Origin: a bacterium
Lineage (GTDB): Bacteria > Electryoneota > Electryoneia > Electryoneales > Electryoneaceae
DNA: 18,683 nucleotides
Direction of reading: 5' to 3'
Assembly: GCA_043801585.1 (NCBI GenBank)
Contig: JAZDLX010000133.1
Span: forward strand, 1 to 18,683
The notes under the pieces: generated by a model
The model's database searches: none
The model's input: only the letters and a program-made list of their open reading frames with translations
What the model was told of the DNA's origin: nothing
Translations under genes and position numbers: made by a program
Part shown: positions 1 through 14,261 of the stretch, one piece after another
How positions within the stretch are numbered: position 1 is the first letter of the stretch
How the letters are laid out: every line of letters begins with the position of its first letter

Positions 1-206
1 AGAAGGAACAGGTTACGTAACGATTTGGATTTGTTCTTCAGAGGAATCCATGATGTTCGTCGCTTGTCGAACCAGCCAAACAGTATTAATGCAATAAACG
101 GGATAAATTGCAGAGCATAAGCACTCAGCTTATGCTGGTGAGAGTAATAATAGAACTGAATTCCGTAGATGCTGAACAACAGCCATATGCCAACGCGTAG
201 TATCAT
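1..206 (-). CDS. N-terminal part of a hydrophobic membrane protein running off the left edge (candidate Wzy polymerase / O-antigen ligase-like); not in the supplied ORF track
   Basis: Manual translation from ATG at 206 gives MILRVGIWLLFSIYGIQFYYYSHQHKLSAYALQFIPFIALILFGWFDKRRTSWIPLKNKSKSLRNLFL with no stop before the edge. It has two hydrophobic segments, a GAGGA about 12 nt upstream, and follows the flippase directly. The product call rests on context only. Confidence 0.6.
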   Translation of the reverse strand, partial: MILRVGIWLLFSIYGIQFYYYSHQHKLSAYALQFIPFIALILFGWFDKRRTSWIPLKNKSKSLRNLFL

Positions 207-237
207 TGTTCGATGAAATCCTCGCGAAACCTGTTAA

Positions 238-1641
238 CTACCGCCGTTTGCGGTAGCGCAACACAATCAATAATGCAGCTGTCAAGTATACTACCTTTAC
301 GCCAATGGCAATAAGAGGAGCTGTATAATGCAACGCAAGGTTTACCGGAATCCCGCCTGCCGCGATCAAAAGAAAGACTCCGATGTTAAAGTATTCATAG
401 TGTAGCGGCAAGATACGCTGGGCAAAATAGTAACAGATAGCGAAGAATACCGCATAAGTAATTGCGTGTGTCAGCGCGGCGCCCATCACACCGAATTTCG
501 GGACGAGAAGAAGGTTCAAGCCAACGTTCAATACGGCTGCCGTTATTGTGGATACGCCGATAATCCGTGAATTGCCCGCTCCCAGCGTTAGAACGTTAGC
601 GGGGATGGTGTAAAGAGCATTGAAAAGGAAACCCAATAACAACAGTGGAAATGGTCCCGCTGCACCGTGGTAAGAGGGCGGTGTAAGCAGATGCAACGCC
701 TCCGGCATGAAAAGGTACATCGGAAGAGCAAGCCCGGTCGTCATCGCGACAAGATAGGTGCTCGCTCGGGCCGCATTCTTTTCACGTAATTCGTCTCCTC
801 GCACAAGATTACCAAAGACAGGTATCAAAGCGTTGTTCATTGCGGAAGCCAGCAGGAAAAGCACACTGCTAAGCGTGAAAGCGAAGTTGAAACGTCCAAC
901 ATCCGCCAAGGGAACATGCCGCTCAAGTATCAGACGTCCCACCGACGCGAGCAACCACAGCGAGAGCATATGGGGGATCATCGGGATACTGTAAGCCAAC
1001 GCCCGACGAAACATCTTCGTGTCAAAACGAATCCGGACGTATCTCACTAAAAAGACACCAAGCGGTACAGCAACGACTACATTACCCAGCACCTTTGCAA
1101 GAAGAGCTCCCTCCGCACCACGCTTCAGGCCAACCACCAACCAGAAAGTAAAAGCTGTACTTAACAGGAAAACACCAAGATTCATCGAAGAATACGCAGT
1201 GGGCCGCTCCGCTGCGCGAAACAGTTCTCTTGGAATGGTAACAAACACAGCGGTCAGAAAACCTATCAGCAATGTCAGATGCAGATAAGGATCGAAGGGA
1301 ACCTGCTCAAAGAGCGAGCCATGGAAAGAACGGCCGGCAAACTCGATAAGTATGTATCCGAGTGTGGGTAGTACAATTGAAAATATCCAAATCGTGCCGT
1401 AAAAGGTTCTGCGTTCCTGTTCGTCTTGATAGTCGTAGTAAAATTTCAGTGCGGCACCGCGGATGCCGAGGGTGAAAACAATAGGAAACATCATCGCCAA
1501 AACATTGGCAATTCCGATAATGCCGAAATCCTCCGGCGTTAGAAATGCCGTGTAGATCGGCAGGAGGAAAAAGTTCATGCCCCGAGTGATCAGATCACCC
1601 AGGGCGTACAAGCTGGAAGTTTTAAGCAGCCGTTTCAGCAT
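238..1641 (-). CDS. wzx: Oligosaccharide flippase (Wzx / MOP-PST family)
   Basis: 467 aa with many hydrophobic segments. The N-terminus 'LLKTSSLYALGDLITRGMNFFLLPIYTAFLTPEDFG' and the C-terminal 'LNVGLNLLLVPKFGVMGAA' are typical of polysaccharide flippases. Confidence 0.9.
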   Translation of the reverse strand: MLKRLLKTSSLYALGDLITRGMNFFLLPIYTAFLTPEDFGIIGIANVLAMMFPIVFTLGIRGAALKFYYDYQDEQERRTFYGTIWIFSIVLPTLGYILIEFAGRSFHGSLFEQVPFDPYLHLTLLIGFLTAVFVTIPRELFRAAERPTAYSSMNLGVFLLSTAFTFWLVVGLKRGAEGALLAKVLGNVVVAVPLGVFLVRYVRIRFDTKMFRRALAYSIPMIPHMLSLWLLASVGRLILERHVPLADVGRFNFAFTLSSVLFLLASAMNNALIPVFGNLVRGDELREKNAARASTYLVAMTTGLALPMYLFMPEALHLLTPPSYHGAAGPFPLLLLGFLFNALYTIPANVLTLGAGNSRIIGVSTITAAVLNVGLNLLLVPKFGVMGAALTHAITYAVFFAICYYFAQRILPLHYEYFNIGVFLLIAAGGIPVNLALHYTAPLIAIGVKVVYLTAALLIVLRYRKRR

Positions 1642-1661
1642 TAGGAAGTTCCGGTCCGGGA

Positions 1662-2549
1662 TCAGAGTCCGTAGAAAAGATTTCTAAGTTTCGTTCTCCA
1701 GTACCAGGATTTTGAACAGTTTTGGAGGTGCTGAAAGTCCACAGGATCTCTGACCGCAATGATATTGCCGTGGGCGAGATCGCTCCCCCGTGGCTGACCT
1801 GGGTACACCCAGATTTCCCGCCATTTGTGAGGTCCGCCGTAGCGCACGACAGGATACCACTCCGAAACCAATATGAAATATCCTCTTTCGCGCAAATAGT
1901 CAGCCATGTTCTGAAAGGTGTACTTAAGGGAGACCGTTTTGCGATCCTCAAATTCGGCGAGAATCATACGGGGCTTTATCGAGTCCCAATTCAGACCTTT
2001 CAACACAAACAGGTCATAGCCTTCTGTATCGATCTTCAGGACATCAATTCCGCTGATTCCTTTATCGTTGCAGTATTTTTCAAGCGTTATGATATCAACG
2101 CTGGCAGTTTTTTTATGGCTTTCATGGAACGGGGTTAGCGTACTGATACCTGTTGATATATCGCTGCTGTAGAAAGCAACATCGGAGCGAATTTCATTGG
2201 ATATGGCCCGGTTATCTCGCACGACGTTGGGAAAACAACTCGTTTCCTCGGTCAATATCGCCATCATTTTGGGGTCAGGTTCAAACGCATGGACTTGCCA
2301 GCCCGCTTTCGCGTAAGGGAGGAGAGTCACACCTTTGTTCGCTCCGACATCGAACATTGTACCGGGCTTGCCAGAGCGAAACGCAACGGATGCCATTAAA
2401 TCAGTTTCACTGATCGTTATGATCTTTGAAAGGCAAGCACGCAGCCTTTTTGGAAAAAGCCATTTGACTCGCTGCCACACTCTGTAGAGGAAACCGATGA
2501 ATGAATGCATGAATCTGTCCTTGGTAAAGTATAAAATCCCTGTCATCAA
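1662..2549 (-). CDS. FkbM-family SAM-dependent methyltransferase (start could be 2549, 2546 or 2510)
   Basis: Motifs 'FDVGANKG', 'HAFEPDP' and 'IDVLKIDTEGYD' are hallmarks of FkbM/Methyltransf_21. Confidence 0.9.
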   Translation of the reverse strand: MMTGILYFTKDRFMHSFIGFLYRVWQRVKWLFPKRLRACLSKIITISETDLMASVAFRSGKPGTMFDVGANKGVTLLPYAKAGWQVHAFEPDPKMMAILTEETSCFPNVVRDNRAISNEIRSDVAFYSSDISTGISTLTPFHESHKKTASVDIITLEKYCNDKGISGIDVLKIDTEGYDLFVLKGLNWDSIKPRMILAEFEDRKTVSLKYTFQNMADYLRERGYFILVSEWYPVVRYGGPHKWREIWVYPGQPRGSDLAHGNIIAVRDPVDFQHLQNCSKSWYWRTKLRNLFYGL

Positions 2550-2557
2550 ATGTGAAG

Positions 2558-3763
2558 TCAGGCAGCGACGTCTTCCAGGTCGTTCAACAGTCCCTGCTGA
2601 AAACGTGAACTGTGAAATTCTTCGCGCCTATCGAATAATTTATTGGGCTTGGACATGAAAGCATTTGACATGGCTTGCCTTATAGAATCAACATTTTCTG
2701 GGGAACACAATTCTCCCCAAACGTTTTTCGCAAAAAGCCCCATCCAGTTTTCCTCACTGCATACGACCTGTTTGCCAAGCACATAGGATTTGATCAGAAC
2801 CCCAGAAGTGCCATAAAACCCCTCATAAGGAATGCACACACAGTCCGCGGCCTTCAAACAATCCACACTTTCGTCTATGCTGAGAATACGATTCTCTATA
2901 ATGAGTGCGCCCGATTCGATCAATCTCCTGGTCGCTGGATTCTCGAGCTCAGCATGTATCCTCGGATCGGCCAGTTGTCCCGCAATGAGTAAACGAGTAG
3001 CCTCAAAACCTGGCTGCTCTCTTAGTTTCCTGAAAGCAGCAATAAGCGCCGCCGTTCCCTTCTTACGATTGTGGAAACCAAAGGTAATAAACAGATAATC
3101 ATTTTGGGAAATTCCAAAACGTTTTTTCAGCTCCTCTTGATCATAATCAGTTTCATAGAATGCCGCCTCAACCGGGTCGGCAATTAAATCAAACTTATCG
3201 CGTTTCATGGTTTTAGTGAGGTAATCAACGGCATATTCGTCAAATAGATGAAGACAACGTAGATTAGAATCATGCGAAAGCAGGAAAAGAGCAAGCATAC
3301 GCCCCATATCACGTAACCGACTTCTGATACTACTCTCCGTTTTGGCTTGAATACCGCCATAGCGCGTATAGTCGATTGTCGGGCCAAGGTAGATTGAGGA
3401 CCAAGGCGCTGCAAAGGCTCTTCCACCCTTGAGTAAATACGACTGAATCAGCACGGAGATCCAATTATCCAGCGTGATAAGGTAGACATGGACAGGGCAA
3501 AGCTCGTGAATGACTGAATTAATTTCCTGGAAGTCTTTCTGAGTCGGTTTTCCATTTTCACCAAACGAATTACCTTTCAGATATCGGATCGTCAGATTTG
3601 GGGCAAATTGAAGAAGTGTTGGGAACAGCAGAGTATTCTTTATTTCTTCAGTAGCTAACAAAACCACATTCTGCTTCCGTGCCATCAAGGCTTCGCAAAG
3701 CAGGAGAAGATGGGCCTGATGATGACCGTTATATTTATCCTCAACAATCAGGATGGGATTCAC
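2558..3763 (-). CDS. GT-B fold glycosyltransferase, GT4-like
   Basis: N-terminal 'GHH', then 'FITFGFHNRKKG' and 'ADCVCIPYEGFYGTSGVLIKSYVLGKQVVCS', resembling the GT4 C-terminal domain. GTG start overlaps the upstream stop (GTGA). Confidence 0.8.
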   Translation of the reverse strand: MNPILIVEDKYNGHHQAHLLLLCEALMARKQNVVLLATEEIKNTLLFPTLLQFAPNLTIRYLKGNSFGENGKPTQKDFQEINSVIHELCPVHVYLITLDNWISVLIQSYLLKGGRAFAAPWSSIYLGPTIDYTRYGGIQAKTESSIRSRLRDMGRMLALFLLSHDSNLRCLHLFDEYAVDYLTKTMKRDKFDLIADPVEAAFYETDYDQEELKKRFGISQNDYLFITFGFHNRKKGTAALIAAFRKLREQPGFEATRLLIAGQLADPRIHAELENPATRRLIESGALIIENRILSIDESVDCLKAADCVCIPYEGFYGTSGVLIKSYVLGKQVVCSEENWMGLFAKNVWGELCSPENVDSIRQAMSNAFMSKPNKLFDRREEFHSSRFQQGLLNDLEDVAA

Positions 3764-4641
3764 TTCACCTCCGTATCAAAGAGAGAAGCATAATCCACTT
3801 TGTCAAATACATCTAGTTTCGTTCCCGGGGTTGCGTTATAAATAGAACGGCCGTCCTTTTCATACTCCTCTTTAGCCTTTCGGTAGGCCATCTCAATCAG
3901 TTTGATTTGTGGAACATGCCACCGATATCCCTTTCCAAAATACGTAGGATCGAAGTGGTTAGAATCCTCCGAGTCGCTGAGTATACGGTCCGTTCCGTAT
4001 TTATTCGGTTCTATAATCGGCTTTTCCGGGATCTTATAGTCATGATCAAATCCGATCAGATATATTTTCCGGAATCCCATATAATATGCAAGCTGCATAT
4101 GGACGAAAGAAACAGTATGGTTGCCATAAATAACTTCACTGATATCTTTAGTAAACTCAGGATAATTTTGGGGTGCTCTGACACGTAGAAACAGGGTGTT
4201 ATTGTCCCTTTTTGCAAAATTTGCCCTTTCTAGAGTGAAAAATTTGATGGAATCCTTTAGAGCGTTAATATCTTTATGACGATCTTCCATGACAAGTGGA
4301 TCGGATACGGCATAGTATGTCGGACGCCATTTAATACGATCATATAGCAAATAGATAGCGTTAGCGGCAAAGGTAATTTCACCTTCGAGCAACGAAAGAT
4401 CTAGTCGATTCAGACTAGGTCCATTGCCGATAATGAAACATCGTGCGCGATCAGAGTGTATGTCTCGAAATCCAGCCAACTTTGGACAATCGATTCGTTG
4501 CCATTGATGACATGCACGTTGATAACGTATTGTTCCGATGACGTAGGAAATGAAATTGATCTTTTTCGATACAGGCAAACGTTGTGGACAAAAACCCAAT
4601 TGGCTTACAAATCTCTGTATTTGTTTCTTTAAAGCTGACAT
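3760..4641 (-). CDS. DUF115 / Maf / MptE-like protein resembling CstII-type sialyltransferases; putative CMP-ulosonate transferase
   Basis: 'RCFIIGNGPSLNRLDL', 'TFAANAIY', 'PTYYAVSD' and 'LAYYMGFRKIYLIGFDHDY' match the IxGNGPSL...GFxxIYLxGxD pattern shared by DUF115/Maf and GT42 proteins. Confidence 0.8.
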   Translation of the reverse strand: MSALKKQIQRFVSQLGFCPQRLPVSKKINFISYVIGTIRYQRACHQWQRIDCPKLAGFRDIHSDRARCFIIGNGPSLNRLDLSLLEGEITFAANAIYLLYDRIKWRPTYYAVSDPLVMEDRHKDINALKDSIKFFTLERANFAKRDNNTLFLRVRAPQNYPEFTKDISEVIYGNHTVSFVHMQLAYYMGFRKIYLIGFDHDYKIPEKPIIEPNKYGTDRILSDSEDSNHFDPTYFGKGYRWHVPQIKLIEMAYRKAKEEYEKDGRSIYNATPGTKLDVFDKVDYASLFDTEVK

Positions 4642-4667
4642 GCCTGAACCCTTTATAGAGTATCTTT

Positions 4668-4697
4668 AGACTATTACCTAGATACATGCACTATCAA
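4668..4697 (-). promoter_or_regulatory. Candidate internal sigma70-like promoter at the module junction
   Basis: Minus strand reads TTGATA (4697-4692), 18 nt, TAGTCT (4673-4668) in the AT-rich gap before the DUF115 gene. It could be a chance match. Confidence 0.25.
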
Positions 4698-4703
4698 CTG
4701 GCA

Positions 4704-5366
4704 TCAAGTAAATCCAATAACCGTGCACGGACCGCCATCGCCCCTCCGAAGACGCAGTGGCGATACGACAACACGCGCCAGCCGACCATCTACCTCAGCC
4801 AGCGCCATGTCCTCAATCGCTAGGATAGGATGTCCCGGACGGTTTGGATCAAGCAATCCACGGTGCGCCTCACGGCCTTCCATTCGATGCAGACTCGAAG
4901 TGACGGAGATGACGTCCATTCCCAGAGCTCGAACAGTGGGATAATGTTCCCGCAGCCAGCCGCCCAGCGAAGGGGCGATCCCGGGATTTCGCGCCCAGTA
5001 AACCTCTTCACCGCGATACTTCTCAAATCCTGTACGCAACAATAACAGGTCCGTTCCCTCCGGGATGTGACCTGCGACATCTCCCGGCTCGATCAGGTGC
5101 CCCTCTTCGCCCGGCACGTCAATGAGTACGGGACGGTCGAACACCCAGAATTCAGCGGGGAAATCAGAGAGGGTCGGCACGTCCTCGGCAAAATGGTACG
5201 GCGTATCCACATGGGTGCCGAGATGATTGGGCAGCGTCAGGCGAACGGTGTTCGCCGTGTCGCCCGCGGCGATGCTGGTGAGCCTGTCGATCTTCAGGCT
5301 TTCACCGCCCCCATAGGCTGGAGTGTCCTCCGCCAGTTCGTGGGACAGCCAGATGATTTTACTCAT
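4704..5366 (-). CDS. Cyclase-family (kynurenine formamidase/KynB-like) metal-dependent hydrolase
   Basis: Signature HxGTHxDxPxH ('NHLGTHVDTPYHF'), plus 'LLLLRTG', 'LGMDVIS', 'IEDM' and 'PLRLRRGDGGP'. Start overlaps the upstream stop (ATGAGTAA). Confidence 0.9.
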   Translation of the reverse strand: MSKIIWLSHELAEDTPAYGGGESLKIDRLTSIAAGDTANTVRLTLPNHLGTHVDTPYHFAEDVPTLSDFPAEFWVFDRPVLIDVPGEEGHLIEPGDVAGHIPEGTDLLLLRTGFEKYRGEEVYWARNPGIAPSLGGWLREHYPTVRALGMDVISVTSSLHRMEGREAHRGLLDPNRPGHPILAIEDMALAEVDGRLARVVVSPLRLRRGDGGPCTVIGFT

Positions 5367-6078
5367 GGGCCGTACCCCTGCTGTCCGACGATAGTCTTTC
5401 TTGCATCATTGCCTCAGCGATGGACCAGTCGATCGGTTCGTCGATGTCCACAGCCTCGTAGGGGTCCATCGGCAACAGCATCGGGTTCGTCCCGATCCGG
5501 TTTCCGCGCTCATTGAAGACCGAGCGGCTGAAAAGGTAGATACAGGAGTTCTCTTCATAAACCGTCGGGAGCTCCTGGGTCTTGATCAGTTTCTCTGGAT
5601 CATGGTTCACCGGTCGTCCATCCGAAAAGTAGAACCTTTTCTGGATGGGCGTCACGGTGAAAAGCGAATCGCGCTCACCGCGTTCCGACGAGAAAAAGGT
5701 TTCCACCGCCCGATCCACCGTCGCCGAAAGCAACAGCGGGTTGGTGCTGTGAGTCTGAAGAAACCATTCCCCCCCGGTGATCGAGAGGTCGTGCGCCATG
5801 ATCTGGTTCGCCTCGTTGCTGGTGATGGTCAGCAGGTGATCGGGGCGCATGTGTATGGTGACGTCGAAATTCGAACGGGCGCTGGCAGCGATCTCCTCGG
5901 AGTCCGTGTTGATGATGATCTCACCGATGTGGTGGCTTTGGGTAAGCACGTCCATGATCCAGTGGAAGAGGGGGCGGCCGCAGAATTCCCTCATGTTTTT
6001 ACGGGGTACGCGTTCGGAGTGGCCCTTCATGAAAAGGAGTGCCTTGATCGGAGGAATCTTGCTCATGATCCGGCTCAC
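5359..6078 (-). CDS. Acylneuraminate/ulosonate cytidylyltransferase (NeuA/KdsB-like); start at GTG 6078 or ATG 6066
   Basis: 'MKGHSERVPRKN' is a variant of ARxxSKRxxxKN; also 'INTDSEEI', 'QTHSTNPL', 'KTQEL', 'YEENSCIY' and 'AVDIDEPIDW'. Confidence 0.9.
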   Translation of the reverse strand: MSRIMSKIPPIKALLFMKGHSERVPRKNMREFCGRPLFHWIMDVLTQSHHIGEIIINTDSEEIAASARSNFDVTIHMRPDHLLTITSNEANQIMAHDLSITGGEWFLQTHSTNPLLLSATVDRAVETFFSSERGERDSLFTVTPIQKRFYFSDGRPVNHDPEKLIKTQELPTVYEENSCIYLFSRSVFNERGNRIGTNPMLLPMDPYEAVDIDEPIDWSIAEAMMQERLSSDSRGTAHE

Positions 6079-6854
6079 TTCTCGCGGATACTGCGAAGAA
6101 ACGCTGACTCATCGCGCATTTTCTCGGCGAAGAACACCATATCGTCGCCGTAGGCGATGAAGGAATAGCCCGCTTCGATCCGGACGCGAAGCTGTTTGTG
6201 GTCGGTGTGGACAACGTGAATTCCGCCAGGCTTCCCGCTCGAGCGCATGACCTTCTCGACCTTCTCGAGCGCGGCTTTTACCTCCGGATGATCGAAATTC
6301 CCGGGTTGGTTGACCGAACCGGACAGGTCGTAAGGACCGACGATGAAACCGTCAACGCCATCAACAGCGAGAATCGCCTCGAGGTTCGCTACCGCATCGA
6401 CATGTTCGATCTGAACGATGACGATGGTCTCGTTCAGGCTCCGCTCGCGGTATTCGGGGAATCCCATTCCATAGTCTTGCGCGCGGGAGAGGCCGACGCC
6501 GCGAGTCCCTTTTGGCGGGTAGTAGGCCGCCGAGACCGCTTTGCTCGCCTGCTCGGCGGTGTTGATCATCGGAATAATAACGCCAGCAGCGCCGGAGTCC
6601 AGCGCACGTTTGATGATCAGCGGGTCGTTGTCGCCGACGCGGACCAGTGGAACGCACCCGGCGAGGTCGATGGTCTGGATCATCTGGTGCATCTCGGCAT
6701 AGTCGATGGCTGTGTGCTCGACATCAATCACGAGCCAGTCAAATCCCGACTTCGCCATCACCTCAGTTATCGGACTGAAGCCCCAGGATAGCCAGGATCC
6801 GATGGTCAGCTCCCGGTTGGCCAGCGCTTCTTTCAGCCGGATGGATGTGCTCAC
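6075..6854 (-). CDS. HpcH/HpaI/GarL-family class II pyruvate aldolase; likely start GTG at 6854
   Basis: Catalytic and metal motifs 'IDVEHT', 'LVRV', 'VQIEH' and 'VGPYDLS', plus 'YPPKGTRG'. The GTG at 6854 overlaps the AroB-like stop (GTGA) and follows GGGGAG, so it is preferred over the track start at 6890. Confidence 0.9.
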   Translation of the reverse strand: MSTSIRLKEALANRELTIGSWLSWGFSPITEVMAKSGFDWLVIDVEHTAIDYAEMHQMIQTIDLAGCVPLVRVGDNDPLIIKRALDSGAAGVIIPMINTAEQASKAVSAAYYPPKGTRGVGLSRAQDYGMGFPEYRERSLNETIVIVQIEHVDAVANLEAILAVDGVDGFIVGPYDLSGSVNQPGNFDHPEVKAALEKVEKVMRSSGKPGGIHVVHTDHKQLRVRIEAGYSFIAYGDDMVFFAEKMRDESAFLRSIREK

Positions 6855-7933
6855 GATTTCTCCCCCCGCCATGCTTCGTCCCGGAACCAAGTCTCAATCC
6901 ACTCGCGTCCTTGACCATCGACATCGAGCGTCGTCTTGAACATCTTGCCCAGCCCACGGGTAAGAATCACTTTGACTTCCTTGCCCACGTTCTTCTTGTC
7001 TTTACGGAGAGCGCCGATGAAGGCATCAATGTCGATCTCGCCCAAGGGTACCTCGTCCCAATAACGGACGAGCACTTCGCGTAAACGGTCGCGAAGCGGC
7101 ATGTCGATCAAGCCACTCTTCGCCGAGATGTAGTTGGCGATGTCCATCCCGTGGCTGACTGCGATGCCGTGGGGGACGCGGTAATCGGTGATCGATTCAA
7201 TCGCGTGGCCGAACGAGTGTCCGTAATTGAAAACCTGACGCTCCTTCTGGTCAAACTCATCGATTTCGATGGTCGCCTTCTTCACCTGAAGGCTGATGTG
7301 GATCAGCTCCTCAAGCACGCTTCTGTCTTCAAATGCCTTGGCGCCCACATCACGGATGATCTCGTACTCGTACTCGCCGGCAACGAAGAAGAAGTGGGTC
7401 ATTTCGCCCAAACCGGAGACGATCTCTTTCTGGTGCAACGTCGTGAGGAACTGCAGGTCGATGTAAATCTCGTTCGGCGGATAGAAATTGCCGAGGAGAT
7501 TCTTGAAGCCCCTAAAATTGATGGACGCTTTTCCTCCAATACAGCTATCGCCCTGTGCGAGCAGGGTGGTGGGGAAGAATATCCATTCCGCTCTCCGGTA
7601 GATGTTCGCTGCGATGAAGGTGACGATGTCCTGGGTAATCCCGCCACCGATGGCTACGAGTCTGTTGTTCTTGCGGAATCCACCCTCGATCAGTTCCTGG
7701 ATTACCGGCTCGATCTCTGTATAGCTTTTCTTCTTTTCCAATGCCTCGATCACGATGGGGTTGTAGTCATCCAGAATATCCCCGAAGCGATCCTTGTGCA
7801 GGTTCAGGACGTTGGCATCGATAACAACGCGGTCCCCCTCACAAAGCACTTCCTGCAAGGTGACGGCGACATCGTCGATAAAGTTCACTTTATAGTCATG
7901 TACGGCAGACCGTATCTCGAGATTCTTAGACAC
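6851..7933 (-). CDS. AroB/3-dehydroquinate-synthase-like sugar-phosphate cyclase (divergent paralog, probably not the housekeeping aroB)
   Basis: 'AIGGGITQD', 'PTTLLAQGDSCIGGK', 'KNLLGNFYPP', 'SGLGEMTH', 'RQVFNYGHSFGHAIE', 'HGIAV' and 'DKK' are NAD- and metal-binding motifs of the DHQS superfamily. Confidence 0.9.
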   Translation of the reverse strand: MSKNLEIRSAVHDYKVNFIDDVAVTLQEVLCEGDRVVIDANVLNLHKDRFGDILDDYNPIVIEALEKKKSYTEIEPVIQELIEGGFRKNNRLVAIGGGITQDIVTFIAANIYRRAEWIFFPTTLLAQGDSCIGGKASINFRGFKNLLGNFYPPNEIYIDLQFLTTLHQKEIVSGLGEMTHFFFVAGEYEYEIIRDVGAKAFEDRSVLEELIHISLQVKKATIEIDEFDQKERQVFNYGHSFGHAIESITDYRVPHGIAVSHGMDIANYISAKSGLIDMPLRDRLREVLVRYWDEVPLGEIDIDAFIGALRKDKKNVGKEVKVILTRGLGKMFKTTLDVDGQGREWIETWFRDEAWRGEKS

Positions 7934-8681
7934 TTACAAATCCTCCATCCACTACGATGTTTTGCCCTGTGATGTATGTGTTCAACGGACTCGCGAGGAA
8001 CATCACAATCCGCGCGATTTCGTCTGGTGTGGCGAACCGGCGAAGCGGTACCTGTGCCGAAAGCGACTCGTACTCTTCCTGGCTAAGGGTAGCCTTGGTC
8101 AACTCCGTGAGGGTGAACCCGGGCGAGACGGCATTAACGAGAACGTTATAGGGGCCGAGGTCCGCTGCCACTGCTTTGGTCAGGCCAATGATGCCCCATT
8201 TGGTCGCGGAGTAGGCGGCCCGCCGTTCACGGGAGATCACACCCCAGATCGAGGCGATACTGACGATTCGTCCCGATTTGGCAGCCTTCATCAACTTGGC
8301 GACTTCACGGGTGAGCAGGAAGTGCGCCCGAAGGTTGACCGCGTGTAAAAGGTCGATGTCCTCGGTTTTGATCTCGTCAATCGGGTTGTTACGGTTGATG
8401 CCAGCGTTGTTTACCAGAACATCGAGACGGCCTAGCTTGGCAATCTTCTCAAAAAAGTCGTTCAGAGAATCGTCGTTTGTGAACTCGACCTGCATGTACT
8501 CGATTCCCTCGAGCCCTGCCGACCGGTCGTTTTCGATGCATTGATCGATTTCAGCCTGGTTGTCGCCGGTCAGGATCAGGTTCGCGCCAGCGTCGTGGAA
8601 TTCTTTTGCGATTGCGGCGCCAATCCCTCGTGTACCACCCGTTATCAGGACGGTTTGTCCGGTGAGGTCTATCGCTGTCAC
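7926..8681 (-). CDS. Classical short-chain dehydrogenase/reductase (SDR)
   Basis: 'ITGGTRGIG', 'LVNNAGIN', catalytic 'YSATK', 'VSPGF' and 'ITGQNIVVDGG'. GTG start follows AGAGGAG. Confidence 0.92.
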   Translation of the reverse strand: MTAIDLTGQTVLITGGTRGIGAAIAKEFHDAGANLILTGDNQAEIDQCIENDRSAGLEGIEYMQVEFTNDDSLNDFFEKIAKLGRLDVLVNNAGINRNNPIDEIKTEDIDLLHAVNLRAHFLLTREVAKLMKAAKSGRIVSIASIWGVISRERRAAYSATKWGIIGLTKAVAADLGPYNVLVNAVSPGFTLTELTKATLSQEEYESLSAQVPLRRFATPDEIARIVMFLASPLNTYITGQNIVVDGGFVSV

Positions 8682-8707
8682 AACTTCTCCTCTCTAGTCC
8701 AACGTCC

Positions 8708-9631
8708 TCAGAACGACACTCCAAGGTCACGCAGCAGATTTTGCACTGCCGCCAGCTCCATACTGCTGCGGCACTGGGCCGTGTACGTGCCAACGTGCGG
8801 CGTCAACAGCACGTTATCGTACTTTGTCAGCGGACCCTCGTAGGGCTCTTTCCAGAAAGCGTCGAACCATGCGGCGCCAACGATGCCGTCCTCCAGTGCA
8901 GTAATCAATGCCTGCTCGTCAACAAGGCTGCCTCGGGCGGAATTAAGCAGAATGACACCCTTTTTCACCTTGGAAAATTGGCTAGAGCCAAGGATTACCT
9001 CCTCGCCGCTGGCATGGAGACTGATAATGTCCGCGACCGTAAGCCCTTCTTCGAGGTCAACCAGTTTTTCCCCGGCGATCAGGTCCTCGGGCTTCAGAAA
9101 CGGGTCGGCAACGAGAATTTGTGGGCCGAAAACGCGCATCATCTCGGCGGTTTTGCGCCCGATCCGTCCATAGCCCACAAACAGCACCGTGCGTCCGATG
9201 AGCCCCTGGCCGATGGACTTCGCCCACTCTCCCGCGTGGAGTTTCGCATTCGTGGCAACGAGGCCACGGCTGAGGGCAAGGGCAGCTGTAACCGTCATTT
9301 CGGCAACCGCCTGCGTGGGGCCGTCGGGTGTGTTAGAAACTTTGATGCCCTTTTCACGCGCCGCTTCGAGGTCGACGTTTGCGATTCCGATTCCAACGCG
9401 CGCAATCGCCTTCAACAGGGGCGCCGACTCGAGAACCTTGCGGTTCAGCGGTTCGAGGCCGGCGATCAGCCCATCCTTGTCGGCGAGATAATCGATCGCC
9501 TCAGCCTCGGTCAACCTGCGTCCGTACGGGTTCTCTACAACCTCGATTCCCGCACTGTGCAGCATTTCGCGGGGGGCAGGATCTGAATCAGCAAAACTTG
9601 ATGTCGTAATTCCAACACGCAGCGGAGTCAC
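8708..9631 (-). CDS. D-isomer-specific 2-hydroxyacid dehydrogenase (SerA-like, no ACT domain)
   Basis: 'VAEMT', 'VGYGRIG', 'LNSARG', 'DAFWKEP' and 'LTPHVG' give the Arg/Glu/His catalytic set. At 307 aa it has no room for a regulatory domain. Confidence 0.9.
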   Translation of the reverse strand: MTPLRVGITTSSFADSDPAPREMLHSAGIEVVENPYGRRLTEAEAIDYLADKDGLIAGLEPLNRKVLESAPLLKAIARVGIGIANVDLEAAREKGIKVSNTPDGPTQAVAEMTVTAALALSRGLVATNAKLHAGEWAKSIGQGLIGRTVLFVGYGRIGRKTAEMMRVFGPQILVADPFLKPEDLIAGEKLVDLEEGLTVADIISLHASGEEVILGSSQFSKVKKGVILLNSARGSLVDEQALITALEDGIVGAAWFDAFWKEPYEGPLTKYDNVLLTPHVGTYTAQCRSSMELAAVQNLLRDLGVSF

Positions 9632-9656
9632 CGATTACCTCTTGCCACTGAGTCTG

Positions 9657-10220
9657 TCAGGAAACGGAGTATTCACTCTTTCCGATGAGCAGGTCGCAGA
9701 CGGCTGCGAGCCAGAAGGTATGCGCCGCCTCAACGATATTGTAGGCGCGACTATCAAGCCAGAAATTGATGTCACCCAGGCTTTTCAGAGGATTGTCCAC
9801 GGCGAAGCCTGTGAACGTGATAACGGTGATACCCATTTCCTTCGCAGTTTCGGCGGCGCGAACCATATTCGGAGAACGCCCGCTGGAACTGATCAGGATC
9901 GCCAGGTCGCCCGAGTCGCCGTGATGTTCGATCGCCTTGGCCACCCACAGTTCGTAACCGTAGTCGTTTCCGTAAGCGGTGATCAGCGCGGCGTCGTTGA
10001 AGGCCATCGAGCGCACCCCACCTTGCTTCGTATAGTCGAGTGCGAAGTGACTGGCGATACTGGCGCTGGCTCCGTTGCCCGCGAGAATCACCTTCTTTCC
10101 CGAGTCCCGTACCTGGACAAGTGTATCACGGAGCTGCTTAATCGTTTCCTGGATGCCGGGTGTATCCACACCACGGTGATACTGGCCAAAATAGTCCTTC
10201 AGGAATGTGTCATCGTTCAT
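9657..10220 (-). CDS. SIS-domain sugar-phosphate isomerase, GmhA-like but divergent
   Basis: 'ILAGNGASASIASHF', 'TAYGNDYGY', 'ISSSGRSPN' and 'YNIVEAAH'. Confidence 0.85.
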   Translation of the reverse strand: MNDDTFLKDYFGQYHRGVDTPGIQETIKQLRDTLVQVRDSGKKVILAGNGASASIASHFALDYTKQGGVRSMAFNDAALITAYGNDYGYELWVAKAIEHHGDSGDLAILISSSGRSPNMVRAAETAKEMGITVITFTGFAVDNPLKSLGDINFWLDSRAYNIVEAAHTFWLAAVCDLLIGKSEYSVS

Positions 10221-11208
10221 AGGATGGGTCGCTCGCGTAAATCTTGTCGACGGTTTGCATCAGCACGAGGGCATCCGCTGAGCTGCCAATCCGTATCGGC
10301 TCATCACGTTCGATGGCGTCGAAGAAATGGTCGATCTCCGAGCGCCAGGAGTGATCCTCGTGATAGGTAATCCGGTCTTCGTCCTCCCAGGTAGCGGCGG
10401 GTGCGGTGGACCGGTTTTTTGCTACTGAAAGAACTTCGTCACCGTACGTCTTGGATGATGTACGTAGACCATTGAGTACCATATATCCCCGCTCGAGGAA
10501 GATTTCCAGGGAGAAGAGGTGGCGCCACTGGGTCATCGTCGAATGCAGCGAGGCAACGATGCCGGTTTTGGAATCCTTCAAGATGGCGAAGACATTGTCC
10601 TCGATTTCGCCTTTCCAATAGCGGTTCGAGATATATGCGTGCACATCGTCAAACGAAGTGCCGAGATAAAGAAACAGGTCGAGCATGTGGATGCCCTGAT
10701 CCAGCAGGATCCCACCCCCGGCCAAGTCACGTTTTGAACGCCAGGTTTCAAAGAAGGCGGCATCCACACTTTTACCATATCGCCCTCGCATCCAGAGCAC
10801 CTGGCCGTATTCACCACTGTCTATCAGATTCTTCATGTGGCGAATGCTGGAATGGTGTCGGTGGTTAAAGCCGTACATCAGCTTTTTACCGCTGGTAGCT
10901 TCGACCTCGCGAATCTCTTCAACTTCCGCCGCACTGAATGCGGGAGGTTTCTCACAGAACACATGCTTGCCCTGCTGGAGAGCGGCGATTGTATGAGGTT
11001 TATTGAGAAAATTCGGAGTACAGATAAACACCGCATCTATGGAGGAATCTTCAATGATCTCCTCGGGGGATTCTGCCGCCACAAAGGATTCGAAATCCTT
11101 TGAAGAGTCTGCATCGTAGACCTTGACAACTTCGGCACGTCCAGCCGTGCTCACAGCTTCAGCTCTGGTGCGACCCATCTTTCCAAATCCAATAACGCCT
11201 ACCTTCAT
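10210..11208 (-). CDS. Gfo/Idh/MocA-family NAD(P)-dependent oxidoreductase
   Basis: 'VGVIGFGKMG', 'HVFCEKP', 'GFNHRH' and 'GGGILLDQGIHMLD'. RBS AAGGAGAG lies upstream. Confidence 0.92.
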   Translation of the reverse strand: MKVGVIGFGKMGRTRAEAVSTAGRAEVVKVYDADSSKDFESFVAAESPEEIIEDSSIDAVFICTPNFLNKPHTIAALQQGKHVFCEKPPAFSAAEVEEIREVEATSGKKLMYGFNHRHHSSIRHMKNLIDSGEYGQVLWMRGRYGKSVDAAFFETWRSKRDLAGGGILLDQGIHMLDLFLYLGTSFDDVHAYISNRYWKGEIEDNVFAILKDSKTGIVASLHSTMTQWRHLFSLEIFLERGYMVLNGLRTSSKTYGDEVLSVAKNRSTAPAATWEDEDRITYHEDHSWRSEIDHFFDAIERDEPIRIGSSADALVLMQTVDKIYASDPSYER

Positions 11209-11265
11209 TGTACTCTCCTTGACAACTGTGCCAGGTGTTCATCAAAGCTGGTGTGTGCGGCTGTG

Positions 11266-12357
11266 TCAGGCTCCCACATCGAGGGGGCGGAGGAAATCGG
11301 AGGGACTCTTCCAGAATGAAAGTGCGAGAACCCATGTTGATCCGGCGAGCGCACCGAGAAAGAGTGCTATCAATACCATCCGTCTACGATGCGGTTTGCT
11401 CTTCAGTGCAGAAATCTTTGCACGGTCGAGGACGACCACGGGCTGACTCTGGCGTACTTCTTCAATCCGTGAAAGCTCGTACTGCTGCCGTAAAGTCAGA
11501 TATATCTCCGTCTGAATCCGCACGTTACGCATCAGGCGATCCCGCTCAAGCTCGAGTTGGGGAGAGCCTGTAATAGATCGATTGCTCTCTTTGAATTGGG
11601 TCAGTTCATCCTCAGCCTGCGCAAGATCTTCATCCACTTGGACAATTCGTCCCTCAATAAACTCACGGTTCTTTCGCTCCAGGCTGTTGTTCATGCGGGT
11701 GGTGATCTCAGCAACCGCATCATAAAGATAATTGGCCACGTCGGCGGAGAGACCTCTCTCCTCCATCAATACGGTGACATGAATCTGCCCGGTGTTTTTA
11801 TCCTCATGTGTACTGATACGGTTTCGTAAACGTTGAATGGCCAGCTCTTCCTGGCGAAGGGCGATCAGGTTGATGCCGCCTTTCCCTTTATCCGATCCGA
11901 GCAGTAATGACCGCAGTCGTTCGCGAAACACGAGGGAGTTAGATCCCGTTGTGTCATTGTATTCCCAATAGGTGATCATGTCGACGGGTTCACCAAACTT
12001 GCTGTTTTCCCATTTATGGCGAACCATCCTGCTCATTACCGAGTAGGATTGCAGTACTTCGGGAATGTTGAAACTCTGCTTGCCACTCATGGGAAAGTTG
12101 AAACCCAGATTTGCTGCAATGCCCGTGAGGTTTTCCAGACCTCCTGGTGGCGATGAAGTGGGGTAAAGAGATACTCCGGAAGTATACAAGTTGGGGATAA
12201 ACAGGCTTATTACCGCCGTCATAAAAGCAATTCCCAGAGCTATTATACCGATGAACTTCCATCTCTCGATAAGAAGCGCAAGGATAAATTCAATGCTCAG
12301 CTCATGGGAAGAGATATCAAGATCCCGAAATCTGTCTGGAATTTGTAGGCTTTTCAG
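11266..12357 (-). CDS. Polysaccharide co-polymerase / chain-length determinant (Wzz or Wzc-N-like, no kinase domain); probable CTG start at 12357
   Basis: The frame is open upstream of the track ATG (12222) and encodes the typical Wzz N-terminus 'ELSIEFILALLIERWKFIGIIALGIAFMTAVISLFIPNLYTS'. A coiled-coil middle is followed by 'VVVLDRA...KSKP' and a second TM helix. AAGGGAG lies 5 nt upstream of CTG 12357. Confidence 0.8.
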   Translation of the reverse strand: MKSLQIPDRFRDLDISSHELSIEFILALLIERWKFIGIIALGIAFMTAVISLFIPNLYTSGVSLYPTSSPPGGLENLTGIAANLGFNFPMSGKQSFNIPEVLQSYSVMSRMVRHKWENSKFGEPVDMITYWEYNDTTGSNSLVFRERLRSLLLGSDKGKGGINLIALRQEELAIQRLRNRISTHEDKNTGQIHVTVLMEERGLSADVANYLYDAVAEITTRMNNSLERKNREFIEGRIVQVDEDLAQAEDELTQFKESNRSITGSPQLELERDRLMRNVRIQTEIYLTLRQQYELSRIEEVRQSQPVVVLDRAKISALKSKPHRRRMVLIALFLGALAGSTWVLALSFWKSPSDFLRPLDVGA

Positions 12358-12423
12358 AACGTCTCCCTTGGGGCAGTGATGGGTTCACCCGAGTGGTTTT
12401 TTGCTTGAACGATCTGGTATACC

Positions 12424-12449
12424 TAATAATATATAGTGATGCCTGTCAA
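12424..12449 (-). promoter_or_regulatory. Candidate promoter of the polysaccharide operon
   Basis: Perfect TTGACA on the minus strand (12449-12444) followed by an AT-rich tract (CTATATATTATTA) about 70-90 nt upstream of the first gene. No -10 hexamer falls at the ideal 17-nt spacing. Confidence 0.35.
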
Positions 12450-12799
12450 GAGTCTATGTAACGTATAAGGACTCTGTTCCAGATGCAATAACAAAGGTAA
12501 GTCTTAAAGGTTCAACCGGTTGCCAAACACCTGGAAGCTTACTTACGGTTTAGTCCTGCAATTCACCCCTGGGGCAGGGATAAATCCCCTTATTCCCCTG
12601 ACGTGATTCGAGAATGGATCCACTCATAGCTTCAGCGCTCTGCAGGAGTAACGCGAAGCACTGATATCCTCCGGTATACCCAGAGACTCGAATTTGTTGT
12701 GAAGGTAGTCGCCGCATCCGGTGGTAAAAAGAGCAAATTGACAAAGAAAAGCGCTTATGAAGAATCAGGGATTCTTGCCCTCTCAACTTTGTCGATAGT

Positions 12800-14014
12800 T
12801 CATTTTACCAGGAGCATCCTGCCGTTCATGACCTTGCCATTCGCCTGCAGACAGCAGAGATAAATTCCACTGGAGAGACCGTGTCCATCGAAAATAACCC
12901 GATGTTCCCCCATCTCCCACCACCCATGTGCCAGTGTCTGTATCCTGCGTCCGGTCAGATTATAGACCGAGAGATCGACACTTCCAGACTGTTCGAGTGA
13001 GAAGCGAATGGTGGTGAGTGGGTTGAACGGGTTCGGCGCGTTGGAATAGAGGGCGGTTTCAGACAATGCACTTGAGGGGGCTGCATCCTCCACCTCCGAC
13101 GATTCGAAGATTTCGCCGATGACATCACCGGTCGAGTATTCCGGAGTTAGTCCGAGTAAATACGCAGCGGTAACTGAGGCGTCTGGAAGAACTCTCACCT
13201 GGGTGGTTACATGGCCTTTGGCCACGTTCGGACCTATCGCCAGAAACATGATATGGCGGCAGCCATCACATGAGCAGCCGTGACCGGAAAATCCTCCATG
13301 GGCATCGTCGTGCCGGCCATGGTCGTTGGTGACCAGCATTGTCGTGGTGTTCTGATAAATCGGATCCGCCTGGATCGCATCCCAGAGTACACCGACGAGG
13401 CTGTCGGCAATCTGGATTGCCCGGGTGTAACGCTGCCAGTCGCCGGAATGTCCCTCGTGGTCGACGTCCGCGAAATACACCCAGAGCAGCTGGGGATGAC
13501 TGGACTCAATGACCTGGAGCGCTTCCTGCAACACATCTCTGTCCGTACTACCCTCACTGTGGAGTGTTGGCCAATAATCCGGGCCATAGTCTGGGTGAAA
13601 ACTCGGCAGCCATAAGGAATAAATGTATTTGAGCACATAAACACATTTGTCTTCGCTCGTCCCTTTCTGCTTTCGAAAGTACTCGAAAATGGTGGGATCC
13701 ACGGCGTATTGAGTCAAAATTTGATTGTAAACCGTGTCCCGGACCTCGGTCCACGACCCGCACCACAACGCCGGAATCGCACGGCTGGTGTAGGTAAATC
13801 CGTCGTTGTAGAACGCATCCACAAGTGAGCCTTCCGACGAAAGCGCATCCATTGCCGGGATGTAAGTCCGGGATGATTCACCGAAAGTTTCCGAGTACCT
13901 CGCCCCGTCGATCACGACAAACACCACGTTCTGAGCCCGCGCTAACAGAGGGATCAAAGCGATGACGATCATGACAACTAGTGCCTTCCAACTACTTCTG
14001 CAAGCACAACACAT
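12800..14014 (-). CDS. Secreted alkaline-phosphatase-superfamily enzyme (phosphatase/phosphodiesterase-like) with C-terminal T9SS type A / FlgD-Ig-like domain
   Basis: RBS GAGGTG before ATG 14014 and a signal peptide ending ARA-Q. Metal motifs 'FVVIDGAR', 'DVDHEGH', 'VTNDHG' and 'GHG'. C-terminal 'NAPNPFNPLTTIRFSL...VYNLTGRRI...LSSGIY...MLLVK'. Confidence 0.85.
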   Translation of the reverse strand: MCCACRSSWKALVVMIVIALIPLLARAQNVVFVVIDGARYSETFGESSRTYIPAMDALSSEGSLVDAFYNDGFTYTSRAIPALWCGSWTEVRDTVYNQILTQYAVDPTIFEYFRKQKGTSEDKCVYVLKYIYSLWLPSFHPDYGPDYWPTLHSEGSTDRDVLQEALQVIESSHPQLLWVYFADVDHEGHSGDWQRYTRAIQIADSLVGVLWDAIQADPIYQNTTTMLVTNDHGRHDDAHGGFSGHGCSCDGCRHIMFLAIGPNVAKGHVTTQVRVLPDASVTAAYLLGLTPEYSTGDVIGEIFESSEVEDAAPSSALSETALYSNAPNPFNPLTTIRFSLEQSGSVDLSVYNLTGRRIQTLAHGWWEMGEHRVIFDGHGLSSGIYLCCLQANGKVMNGRMLLVK

Positions 14015-14261
14015 ATTCTCACCTCACTCCCGTTGCATTCTCTACGTTACGAAACCGGGATCGCCAACACACGCCGACTGGAGCACCGGAGGCCGGATGT
14101 CGTCATTCCGACGATCATTCAATGGTTATGCTTCCGCGTCCTTGGGCTTCCCATCGATCCTCCATTCCGGTTGCAAATGTGACCGATACTCTGCACTTTT
14201 ACACGATCCCGCTCCGTTTCCAGTCCGGTCGTTGGATTTCATATCAGCCTTGGAGATACCG

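Follow-up and report, generated by a model that had tools for sequence, protein, structure and literature searches.

A Surface-Glycan Locus without a Condensing Synthase

How does a bacterial surface-glycan locus obtain a CMP-activated acidic sugar if neither NeuB nor KdsA is encoded in it? The question is raised by contig JAZDLX010000133.1 (C31) of the Electryoneota genome GCA_043801585.1 (3.28 Mb, 225 contigs, 56% GC), which was analyzed as one whole stretch of 18,683 bp, hereafter the window. According to ORF (open reading frame) calls and to Pfam and NCBIfam profile scans of 17 ORFs, thirteen minus-strand genes follow one another head to tail, from a Wzz-like gene, which is the first, to a Wzx flippase gene. 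Eight of them form a putative pathway: a Gfo/Idh/MocA oxidoreductase (GFO), a SIS-domain isomerase, a D-2-hydroxyacid dehydrogenase (2HADH), a short-chain dehydrogenase/reductase (SDR), an AroB-like protein related to dehydroquinate synthase (DHQS), an HpcH/HpaI aldolase, a cytidylyltransferase, and a cyclase-family hydrolase. A DUF115 protein follows. A preliminary description of the window, made from its letters, had placed eight co-oriented genes and a DUF115 gene directly after them (3760..11208) between wzz and wzx, with mostly overlapping junctions. The scans confirm this layout, with the nine genes lying between the Wzz-like gene and a GT1/FkbM/Wzx tail. Of the seven junctions that join the eight pathway genes, five are overlaps (of 11, 8, 40, 4, and 8 nt, taking the longest-ORF starts) and two leave spacers of 25 and 26 nt. 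As had also been reported, no NeuB, KdsA, NeuC, nucleoside diphosphate (NDP)-sugar dehydratase, aminotransferase, or acetyltransferase was found among the 17 ORFs with Pfam and NCBIfam; the same scans revealed no match to the HAD phosphatase family among the window ORFs.

Our answer is a tentative one: the cassette may start from a sugar phosphate with seven carbons and make from it a CMP-activated 2-keto acid sugar, destined for a surface glycan that depends on Wzx. The gene content, the conservation of the genes as a unit, their intact catalytic motifs, and their family memberships are direct observations, and the order of the reactions is what we infer. The central idea of the preliminary description, an undescribed pathway to a CMP-activated acidic sugar that involves a DHQS-like enzyme, is retained here, while the role that it gave to the aldolase is probably wrong.

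Conservation and Distribution of the Cassette

Ninety loci were compared (the window, L001–L009, and L060–L139); hidden Markov models were built from their clustered ORFs and searched in all six frames. A gene family was counted if it was found on the same strand within 8 kb of the AroB-like gene. Fractions of 30 refer to the loci with at least 4 kb on each side of that gene; these include the window and its 95–96% identical twin L060 and are interrelated rather than independent.

In this set, the SDR gene is present in all 30 loci, the cytidylyltransferase gene in 28 (29 if either strand is counted), the GFO gene in 27, and the SIS and 2HADH genes in 26 each. All five of these core partners were found together in 24 of the 30 loci, and all eight families of the window in 12, the window and L060 counted. 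An SDR gene immediately precedes the AroB-like gene in every one of the 30 full loci and, where the upstream sequence is long enough, in 67 of 68 loci. The usual order is (phosphogluconolactonase)–SIS–GFO–2HADH–SDR–AroB-like–CMP transferase. This arrangement is far beyond chance, and the genes form a real, recurrent cassette. The preliminary description had named a failure of the genes to co-occur elsewhere as grounds for giving it up; since they do co-occur, this objection falls away.

The cassette is accompanied by a synthase of the usual kind only rarely. NeuB was detected in 4 of the 90 loci and DAHP_synth_1/KdsA in none, in agreement with the earlier suggestion of a cassette that works without these enzymes in cis.

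At least 597 metagenome stretches match the AroB-like family of the cassette. A member scoring above the cut-off of the NCBIfam model TIGR04425 was found in 15 of 401 sampled genomes (~4%) in the phylum of L005's genome, G079 (a metagenome-assembled genome (MAG) titled Bacteroides) counted, and in 1 of 79 genomes in the window's own small phylum, namely, only the window's genome. Chlorobium limicola DSM 245 carries a family member, ACD90921.1, whose NCBI name is the TIGR04425 name, and further relatives occur in MAGs titled Desulfobacterales, Spirochaetia, Elusimicrobiota, and Pelagibacteraceae; TIGR04425 is likewise passed by the relatives from L005's genome and from a Desulfobacterales MAG. 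Such patchy spread is typical of serotype-specific glycan genes. Full-text literature searches returned no paper characterizing the cassette. The statement of the preliminary description that no characterized pathway has this gene set thus stands for the literature searched; the family itself, however, had already been flagged in NCBIfam as TIGR04425.

Several variants of the cassette can be noted. In the metagenome stretch L060:1-11708, the AroB-like protein is 95–96% identical and the same eight genes are present, with Wzx located between the cyclase and DUF115 genes, so that even such a close relative shows rearrangement. The 11.7-kb contig, whose end falls just past GT1, had no FkbM methyltransferase call. 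L008, L085, and L131 form a sub-variant with extra GFO-like genes, a conserved gene of no known family ('unk19'), and up to three cytidylyltransferase genes; DUF4862 was found in L085 and L131, and a radical-SAM/SPASM enzyme in L085.

The AroB-like Signature Enzyme

The signature gene of the cassette encodes the AroB-like protein (6851..7933, minus strand). It matches TIGR04425 with 413.4 bits (E 6.6e-124; 413.2 bits in the genome search) against a cut-off of 400, and scores 252.4 bits with the aroB equivalog TIGR01357, below the cut-off of 305. TIGR04425 is an NCBIfam hypothetical equivalog named 'AroB-related putative sugar phosphate phospholyase (cyclizing)'; the model is purely computational and names neither substrate nor product. 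The housekeeping aroB of the same genome is a separate gene (contig C16:42273-43412) whose product is 30% identical to the AroB-like protein of the window, and in the phylogenetic tree, the latter is on a long branch from housekeeping AroB.

Among solved structures, the best match is Helicobacter pylori DHQS (E 2e-46), and the matches to 2-deoxy-scyllo-inosose synthase (E 1e-26) and ValA (E 1e-23) are far weaker. The enzymes of the DHQS superfamily whose substrates are sugar phosphates but which do not belong to the shikimate pathway were matched (2d2x, 4p53, and 5tpr) with E values of 1e-20 to 1e-26; for the sedoheptulose-7-phosphate cyclases (EEVS/EVS/DDGS), the matches were the weak ones to 4p53 and 5tpr. 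The products of these non-shikimate enzymes are activated, if ever, as NDP-cyclitols by a different transferase family.

The active site was compared between 30 family members and 29 housekeeping AroBs from the window's phylum. Residues R113, D129, K135, K144/N145, E177, K218, R232, N236, H239, H243, H255, and K313/K314 are shared by both groups; we take them to be the metal, phosphate, and, by comparison with the Aspergillus nidulans structure, carboxylate ligands of DHQS, including the Arg and Lys that bind the carboxylate of its substrate. Several changes are fixed in the cassette family: K to H180, H to Y151, Q to P152, E to I257, A to S130, and T to S240, together with C131. His180 replaces Lys in at least 90% of the 30 family members, which keep the other core residues; the 29 housekeeping AroBs, like the AroB of the window's genome, have Lys there. 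Position 180 is presumably that of the Lys of the Glu-x-x-Lys motif (Lys197 in A. nidulans numbering). Owing to His180, the canonical AroB active-site set is incomplete. The protein thus has in common with DHQS AroB (EC 4.2.3.4) the fold, both Pfam domains, and the metal, phosphate, and carboxylate motif residues, but its gene lies in a glycan operon beside a cytidylyltransferase gene and not in aromatic amino acid metabolism. Since the DHQS residues are shared, fixed differences are present, and DHQS is by far the best match, the substrate probably resembles 3-deoxy-D-arabino-heptulosonate 7-phosphate (DAHP), a 2-keto acid 7-phosphate in the pyranose form, yet would not be identical to it.

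Only the CMP-type cassette has His180; Lys occupies this position in a more remote AroB-like group. Its members, 35–45% identical, were observed at L011:7487-14470, L013:8240-16504, and L015:5999-15160 in MAGs titled Actinomycetota, Acidobacteriaceae, and Sulfurirhabdus. They belong to a second conserved cassette of glycan type, in which genes of a weak HpcH-like protein, an SDR, an AroB-like protein, and a three-domain thiamine pyrophosphate (TPP) enzyme are followed by GtrA, GT2, and epimerase genes, and which has no cytidylyltransferase gene. Their AroB-like proteins have the DSC and Y/H-P signatures in common with the cassette family and retain Lys at 180.

Enzymes Proposed to Act around the AroB-like Step

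The SIS protein (9657..10220, minus strand; PF13580) is a single-domain, GmhA-like phosphosugar isomerase. Its best solved matches are phosphoheptose isomerases (E 7e-20), and its best NCBIfam match is the gmhA equivalog, with 73.9 bits, below the cut-off of 209.45. Conservation across 51 family members extends to the phosphate loop SSSGxSxN and to residues H58, D62, E164, and H167. Of four metal/catalytic positions aligned with GmhA, three are unchanged or conservatively substituted.

The GFO protein (10210..11208, minus strand; PF01408 and PF22725) has a conserved EKP motif. The structures nearest to it are DgpA, 1,5-anhydrofructose reductase, glucose-fructose oxidoreductase, and aldose-aldose oxidoreductase (E ~1e-22); C3 and cyclitol dehydrogenases are also among the nearest. 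The 2HADH protein (8708..9631, minus strand; PF02826 and PF00389) resembles phosphoglycerate dehydrogenases: among solved structures, it is most similar to D-3-phosphoglycerate dehydrogenases, with 1wwk first (E 5e-52), and its catalytic Arg, Glu, and His (R233, E262, and H279) are conserved. The SDR ketoreductase gene (7926..8681, minus strand; PF13561 and PF00106) overlaps the AroB-like gene by 8 nt.

Two types of hydrolase were found with this core. The cyclase-family metal hydrolase (4704..5366, minus strand; PF04199, 76.4 bits against a cut-off of 23.1) has the motif HLGTHVDTPYH, of the HxGTHxDxPxH type, which is conserved in 31 members. It matches kynurenine formamidase and isatin hydrolase and scores 60.8 bits with the arylformamidase equivalog, which requires 223. 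Its gene is present in 17 of the 30 full loci and in 34 of all 90. A PF01182 lactonase is encoded inside the cassette in 5 of the 90 loci, immediately upstream of SIS–GFO–2HADH–SDR–AroB-like, and the copy in L115 passes the 6-phosphogluconolactonase equivalog TIGR01198 (169 bits, cut-off 124). The two hydrolases do not overlap in any locus. That the cyclase-family hydrolase is a lactonase is our guess. We had considered their mutual exclusion as proof of this role; it was reduced to a hint, as the probability is ~0.09 and the loci are related. The weightier observation is that some cassettes encode a phospho-lactonase.

The conserved phosphate loop of the SIS protein, the closeness of 2HADH to 3-phosphoglycerate dehydrogenases, and the presence of 6-phosphogluconolactonase in some cassettes suggest a preference for phosphorylated substrates. 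Together, SIS, 2HADH, and the in-cassette lactonase point to oxidation that would take place at C1 and C2 of such substrates. The sugar-phosphate start proposed in the preliminary description is plausible. An oxidative origin of the 2-keto acid is suggested by the conserved core and by the bona fide 6-phosphogluconolactonase within some cassettes. The oxidation of an aldose phosphate to an aldonate phosphate and further to a 2-keto-aldonate phosphate is known from Zwf/Pgl and from Epd/PdxB of pyridoxal phosphate synthesis. The proposed logic is the same: a C1 dehydrogenase, a phospho-lactonase (in L115), and a D-2-hydroxyacid dehydrogenase of the phosphoglycerate dehydrogenase/PdxB kind. The differences are that the proposed C1 dehydrogenase is a Gfo/Idh/MocA protein and that the product would feed a nucleotide-sugar pathway.

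Putative CMP Activation and Transfer

The cytidylyltransferase (5359..6078, minus strand) is probably of the CMP-forming NeuA/KdsB type (PF02348, CTP_transf_3, 72.3 bits against a cut-off of 22.6). Its best solved matches are CMP-N-acetylneuraminate (CMP-Neu5Ac) synthetases (E 3e-14), and its Mg-binding D..D motif aligns with that of NeuA in our reading of the alignment. PseF is the best NCBIfam match, with 79.7 bits, below the cut-off of 205.7, and the scores of all KdsB models are also below their cut-offs.

The DUF115/MptE-like putative transferase (3760..4641, minus strand; PF01973, 45.5 bits against 34.6) matched nothing in a sequence search of the PDB, and its matches came from a fold search only. 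An AlphaFold (AF2) model with a mean pLDDT (the predicted per-residue confidence score) of 84.7 is most similar to Maf (5mu5; E 1.2e-6, probability 1.00), then to the archaeal kinase MptE (HPPK), and then to ST6GalNAc2, CstII, and ST8SiaIII. The probability of the match with CstII (1ro7) is 0.99, and the TM-scores are low across the fold matches (0.3–0.47). The protein thus combines PF01973 with a Maf/CstII-like fold, and the preliminary description of a cytidylyltransferase and a CstII-like DUF115 protein in the last part of the cassette agrees with these results. Atlas neighbors are all PF01973 proteins, and some of them also carry WaaZ_KDO_III, the family of the 3-deoxy-D-manno-octulosonate (Kdo) transferase WaaZ. 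Maf proteins, whose PF01973/DUF115 domain resembles CstII, are shown in a preprint to transfer Neu5Ac and Kdo (10.1101/2020.06.03.131540). The DUF115 protein of the window shares PF01973 and the fold match with the flagellin nonulosonic acid transferases of the Maf type and with CstII (GT42-like), but it is a single-domain protein of 293 aa, whereas Maf has 632 aa, and it is encoded in a polysaccharide locus and not in a flagellar one. It is predicted to use the CMP-sugar of the cassette.

A gene of MptE-like, polysialyltransferase-like, or GT29-like type is present in 15 of the 30 loci (MptE-like in 10, polysialyltransferase-like in 4). Matches to GT29, the animal-type sialyltransferase family, were observed directly by the cassette in two metagenome loci, at L138:6681-7451 and L117:1371-2874. 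YhcH/DUF386, annotated as N-acetylneuraminate anomerase, is encoded in 10 of the 30 loci, with a score of 103 bits for NCBIfam NF040884, below the cut-off of 160; 8 of these 10 loci also contain HpcH. YhcH is presented in PMC8141875 as an anomerase that opens the sialic acid ring. The cytidylyltransferase, the sialyl-type transferases, and YhcH are, as far as family assignment goes, accessories of hemiketal 2-ulosonic acids.

In its second half, the cassette is similar to the CMP-Kdo and CMP-nonulosonic acid pathways (KdsD/KdsA/KdsC/KdsB; NeuC/NeuB/NeuA; Pse and Leg), which also end with a CTP_transf_3 cytidylyltransferase and a sialyl/Kdo-type transferase. The start resembles the CMP-Kdo pathway too, with a SIS-domain phosphosugar isomerase, like KdsD, in a Wzx-type glycan locus. 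However, a synthase condensing phosphoenolpyruvate (PEP) is absent from the window and rare in its relatives (4/90), so that the locus does not encode a canonical nonulosonic acid or Kdo pathway. Here, an oxidation would give rise to the keto acid, and the phosphate would be lost in an elimination.

Elsewhere in the genome, the region C16:1-8000 (L140) encodes NeuB, an asparagine synthase, a GT2-cytidylyltransferase fusion, a second cytidylyltransferase, a methyltransferase, and a 4,6-dehydratase-type epimerase, and a nonulosonic acid of the conventional kind is probably another product of this organism. The possibility that this NeuB supplies the substrate of the cassette was considered and rejected, because the NeuB cluster lies on a different contig and has two cytidylyltransferase domains of its own, and because NeuB seldom accompanies the cassette in other loci.

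The Proposed Pathway and the Fate of the Ring Oxygen

The usual gene order is nearly colinear with the order of reactions that we propose. SIS would convert sedoheptulose 7-phosphate to heptose 7-phosphate, and GFO would oxidize the latter at C1 to a phospho-lactone. The lactone would be opened to heptonate 7-phosphate by the cyclase-family hydrolase, by Pgl in some relatives, or by spontaneous hydrolysis, after which 2HADH would oxidize the C2 hydroxyl and give 2-keto-heptonate-7-phosphate, the 3-hydroxy analogue of DAHP. On this compound, the AroB-like protein may carry out NAD+-dependent oxidation of the DHQS type and beta-elimination of the 7-phosphate, and the translationally coupled SDR would reduce the ketone left after the elimination. 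The NeuA-type cytidylyltransferase would then place CMP onto the anomeric hydroxyl, and the Maf/CstII-like DUF115 protein would transfer the sugar to a glycan, which GT1, FkbM, Wzx, and Wzz would handle further. HpcH would be an optional tailoring enzyme responsible either for pyruvate extension or branching at a carbonyl or for open-chain epimerization.

As the downstream enzymes (transferases and anomerase) are those of hemiketal ulosonic acids, we weakly favor a deoxy-heptulosonic acid that keeps its ring oxygen as the product. This would require the return of hydride to C7, for which the NDP-sugar 4,6-dehydratases provide an analogy.

The main alternative shares the upstream half of the pathway. 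In it, the AroB-like protein would perform the full DHQS reaction (elimination, ring opening, and intramolecular aldol addition) and form a hydroxylated, quinate-like cyclohexane carboxylic acid, whose tertiary C1 hydroxyl, lying by the carboxylate, would mimic the anomeric center and be CMP-activated as the donor of a 'carba-ulosonic acid'. The AroB-like protein is much nearer to DHQS (E 2e-46) than to anything else, its DHQS catalytic set is essentially whole, the SDR is always adjacent, as a ketone product would predict, and GFO is as similar to inositol dehydrogenases as to aldose dehydrogenases. In addition, the enol-pyranose intermediate of DHQS cyclizes spontaneously. However, a tertiary carbocyclic CMP ester has no ring oxygen to stabilize the transition state of transfer, the full DHQS product would be devoid of an anomeric center, and CMP-quinic acid is known to us only as a synthetic sialyltransferase inhibitor. 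Three transferase families of the sialyl/ulosonate type co-occur with the cassette, and a homologue of sialate anomerase, an enzyme that is sensible only for a hemiketal, is found in 10 of the 30 loci. The changes of K to H180, HQ to YP, and E to I257 also show that something other than the plain DHQS reaction takes place. We regard a carbocyclic product as a minor possibility. That the cassette makes CMP-'carba-ulosonic acid' by DHQS-type cyclization of 2-keto-heptonate-7-phosphate and that Maf/CstII-like enzymes install it in surface glycans seems unlikely.

Several points weigh against the proposed oxidative pathway to a deoxy-heptulosonic acid, whose steps are predictions from sequence. 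To our knowledge, every characterized enzyme of the DHQS superfamily cyclizes its substrate, so that retention of the ring oxygen is chemistry new for this family. The seven-carbon assignment would follow only from a likeness to GmhA that is below the cut-off, and by our reading of the alignment, the SIS protein has Ala where Burkholderia pseudomallei GmhA has the residue that we take to be His183. Enzymes of the Gfo/Idh/MocA family oxidize C2, C3, or cyclitol hydroxyls as well. Neither hydrolase is encoded in 10 of the 30 loci, and the mutual exclusion of the cyclase and PF01182 genes is not significant ((56/90)^5 ~0.09), the loci being related and three of the five being close relatives. Lastly, HpcH is present in basal branches of the AroB-like tree, and a weak HpcH-like gene lies beside the distant AroB-like gene of the TPP-type cassette; hence, the aldolase and the AroB-like protein may have been functionally linked in an ancestor.

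The Role of the HpcH Aldolase

The preliminary description had assigned the key step to HpcH: the aldolase would add pyruvate to a carbonyl compound delivered by the isomerase, the dehydrogenases, and the AroB-like cyclase, thus replacing NeuB or KdsA, and the resulting 2-keto-3-deoxy acid, possibly cyclitol-fused, would be CMP-activated. The protein (6075..6890, minus strand; PF03328, E 1.1e-34, 120.1 bits against a cut-off of 25) is closest to GarL and YfaU, aldolases of 2-keto-3-deoxy sugar acids (E ~5e-46). Its catalytic residues E58/H59, R84, E162, and D188 are intact; R84, E162, and D188 have counterparts in these two aldolases and show conservation among 25 family members. With PF03328, the catalytic Arg, and the metal-binding Glu and Asp, it is a class II pyruvate aldolase, although the equivalog cut-offs of HpaI, GarL, and RhmA are not reached. 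HpcH is encoded in the window and in 16 of the 30 loci, and its presence in basal branches also fits a backbone role. The 8 of 10 YhcH loci with HpcH echo the pairing of YhcH with the aldolase NanA that is mentioned in PMC8141875.

The distribution of HpcH, however, weighs against this role. In 13 of the 30 complete loci, the cytidylyltransferase is kept and HpcH is absent. Pfam scans of the unassigned ORFs in the 14 HpcH-less loci revealed no other aldolase, and no other synthase except NeuB in three. When HpcH presence was mapped on a maximum-likelihood tree of 30 AroB-like proteins, at least five changes were required, a number as low as which was reached in 0 of 500 shuffles. Only 16 of 30 loci contain HpcH, with no fewer than five gains or losses, whereas 29 of 30 retain the cytidylyltransferase; HpcH is therefore an accessory enzyme and is unlikely to perform the step that makes the keto acid. 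A backbone role would also leave 2HADH, SIS, and the in-cassette phosphogluconolactonase without a clear function, and we consider it improbable.

Close sisters in the tree differ in this respect: L002 carries HpcH, and L005 carries a class-III aminotransferase similar to lysine-6-transaminase, a cytidylyltransferase–cupin fusion, and two YhcH genes. HpcH and the class-III aminotransferase, which was found in 3 loci, occur together in none of the 30. Because they never co-occur, our interpretation is that the two enzymes may be alternative means of tailoring a shared carbonyl intermediate.

It is very improbable that the AroB-like protein is merely a second DHQS, which would take DAHP from the cellular pool or from an HpcH-catalyzed reaction of pyruvate with erythrose 4-phosphate and serve in a quinate/shikimate-type glycan decoration or small-molecule pathway with the dehydrogenases as generic tailoring enzymes, since the conserved DHQS residues, the two DAHP_synth_1 genes through which the genome makes DAHP, and the ability that an HpcH aldolase might in principle have to form DAHP-like acids are set against the failed aroB cut-off (252 < 305) with TIGR04425 passed, the long branch from housekeeping AroB, the unexplained phosphosugar isomerase and phosphogluconolactonase, and the embedding of the cassette in Wzz/Wzx/glycosyltransferase loci with CMP-type transferases.

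Significance of the Cassette

The cassette is probably of the CMP-ulosonic acid type but with a different logic; it is widespread and apparently uncharacterized. The familiar bacterial route to CMP-activated acidic sugars is the condensation of PEP with a sugar. If the oxidative pathway proposed here is correct, a second route would exist, based on sugar-phosphate oxidation and DHQS-type elimination of phosphate, and sugars similar to sialic acid or Kdo may be displayed even where a glycan locus has no NeuB or KdsA. Such sugars are relevant to the diversity of serotypes, to phage receptors, and to immune recognition. The DHQS superfamily would acquire a new biological role and possibly new chemistry, an NCBIfam 'hypothetical equivalog' (TIGR04425) would receive a function, and new CMP-sugars would become available for glycoengineering. 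If the product were instead a carba-ulosonic acid, this would be the first pseudo-sugar donor of the sialic acid type and the first pseudo-glycosyl transfer in primary cell-surface biosynthesis, across many phyla.

Other Features of the Window

The locus begins with the gene of a Wzz-like chain-length determinant (11266..12222, minus strand), which matches PF13807 (GNVR, E 8.7e-10) and, weakly, chain-length determinant and Wzc models. Downstream of the DUF115 gene and on the same strand are the genes encoding a GT1-family glycosyltransferase (2558..3763; PF13692 and PF00534), an FkbM-family methyltransferase (1662..2549; PF05050; TIGR01444, 78.7 against 37.7), and a Wzx-type flippase (238..1641; PF01943 and PF13440). 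As the window is an entire contig that ends there, the locus may continue beyond Wzx. A consensus scan of positions 1-13000 gave 18 sigma-70 promoters (12.2±3.4 in shuffled controls) and 12 terminators (12.2±4.2), and neither number is above the controls.

The transferase/flippase end of the locus (Wzx, FkbM, GT1, and DUF115; positions 1-5000) has a GC content of 44–49%, and the sugar cassette (5000-11200) one of 53–59%, the genome average being 56%; this contrast suggests that the locus is of mosaic origin. The glycan operon is adjoined by the genes of an alkaline phosphatase/phosphodiesterase-like protein sorted by the type IX secretion system (T9SS) (12800-14014, minus strand) and of a GH97 glycoside hydrolase (13962-16370, plus strand). 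A Wzi-like protein, with a score of 29.7 bits just under the Pfam cut-off, is encoded at 16501-18219 on the plus strand.

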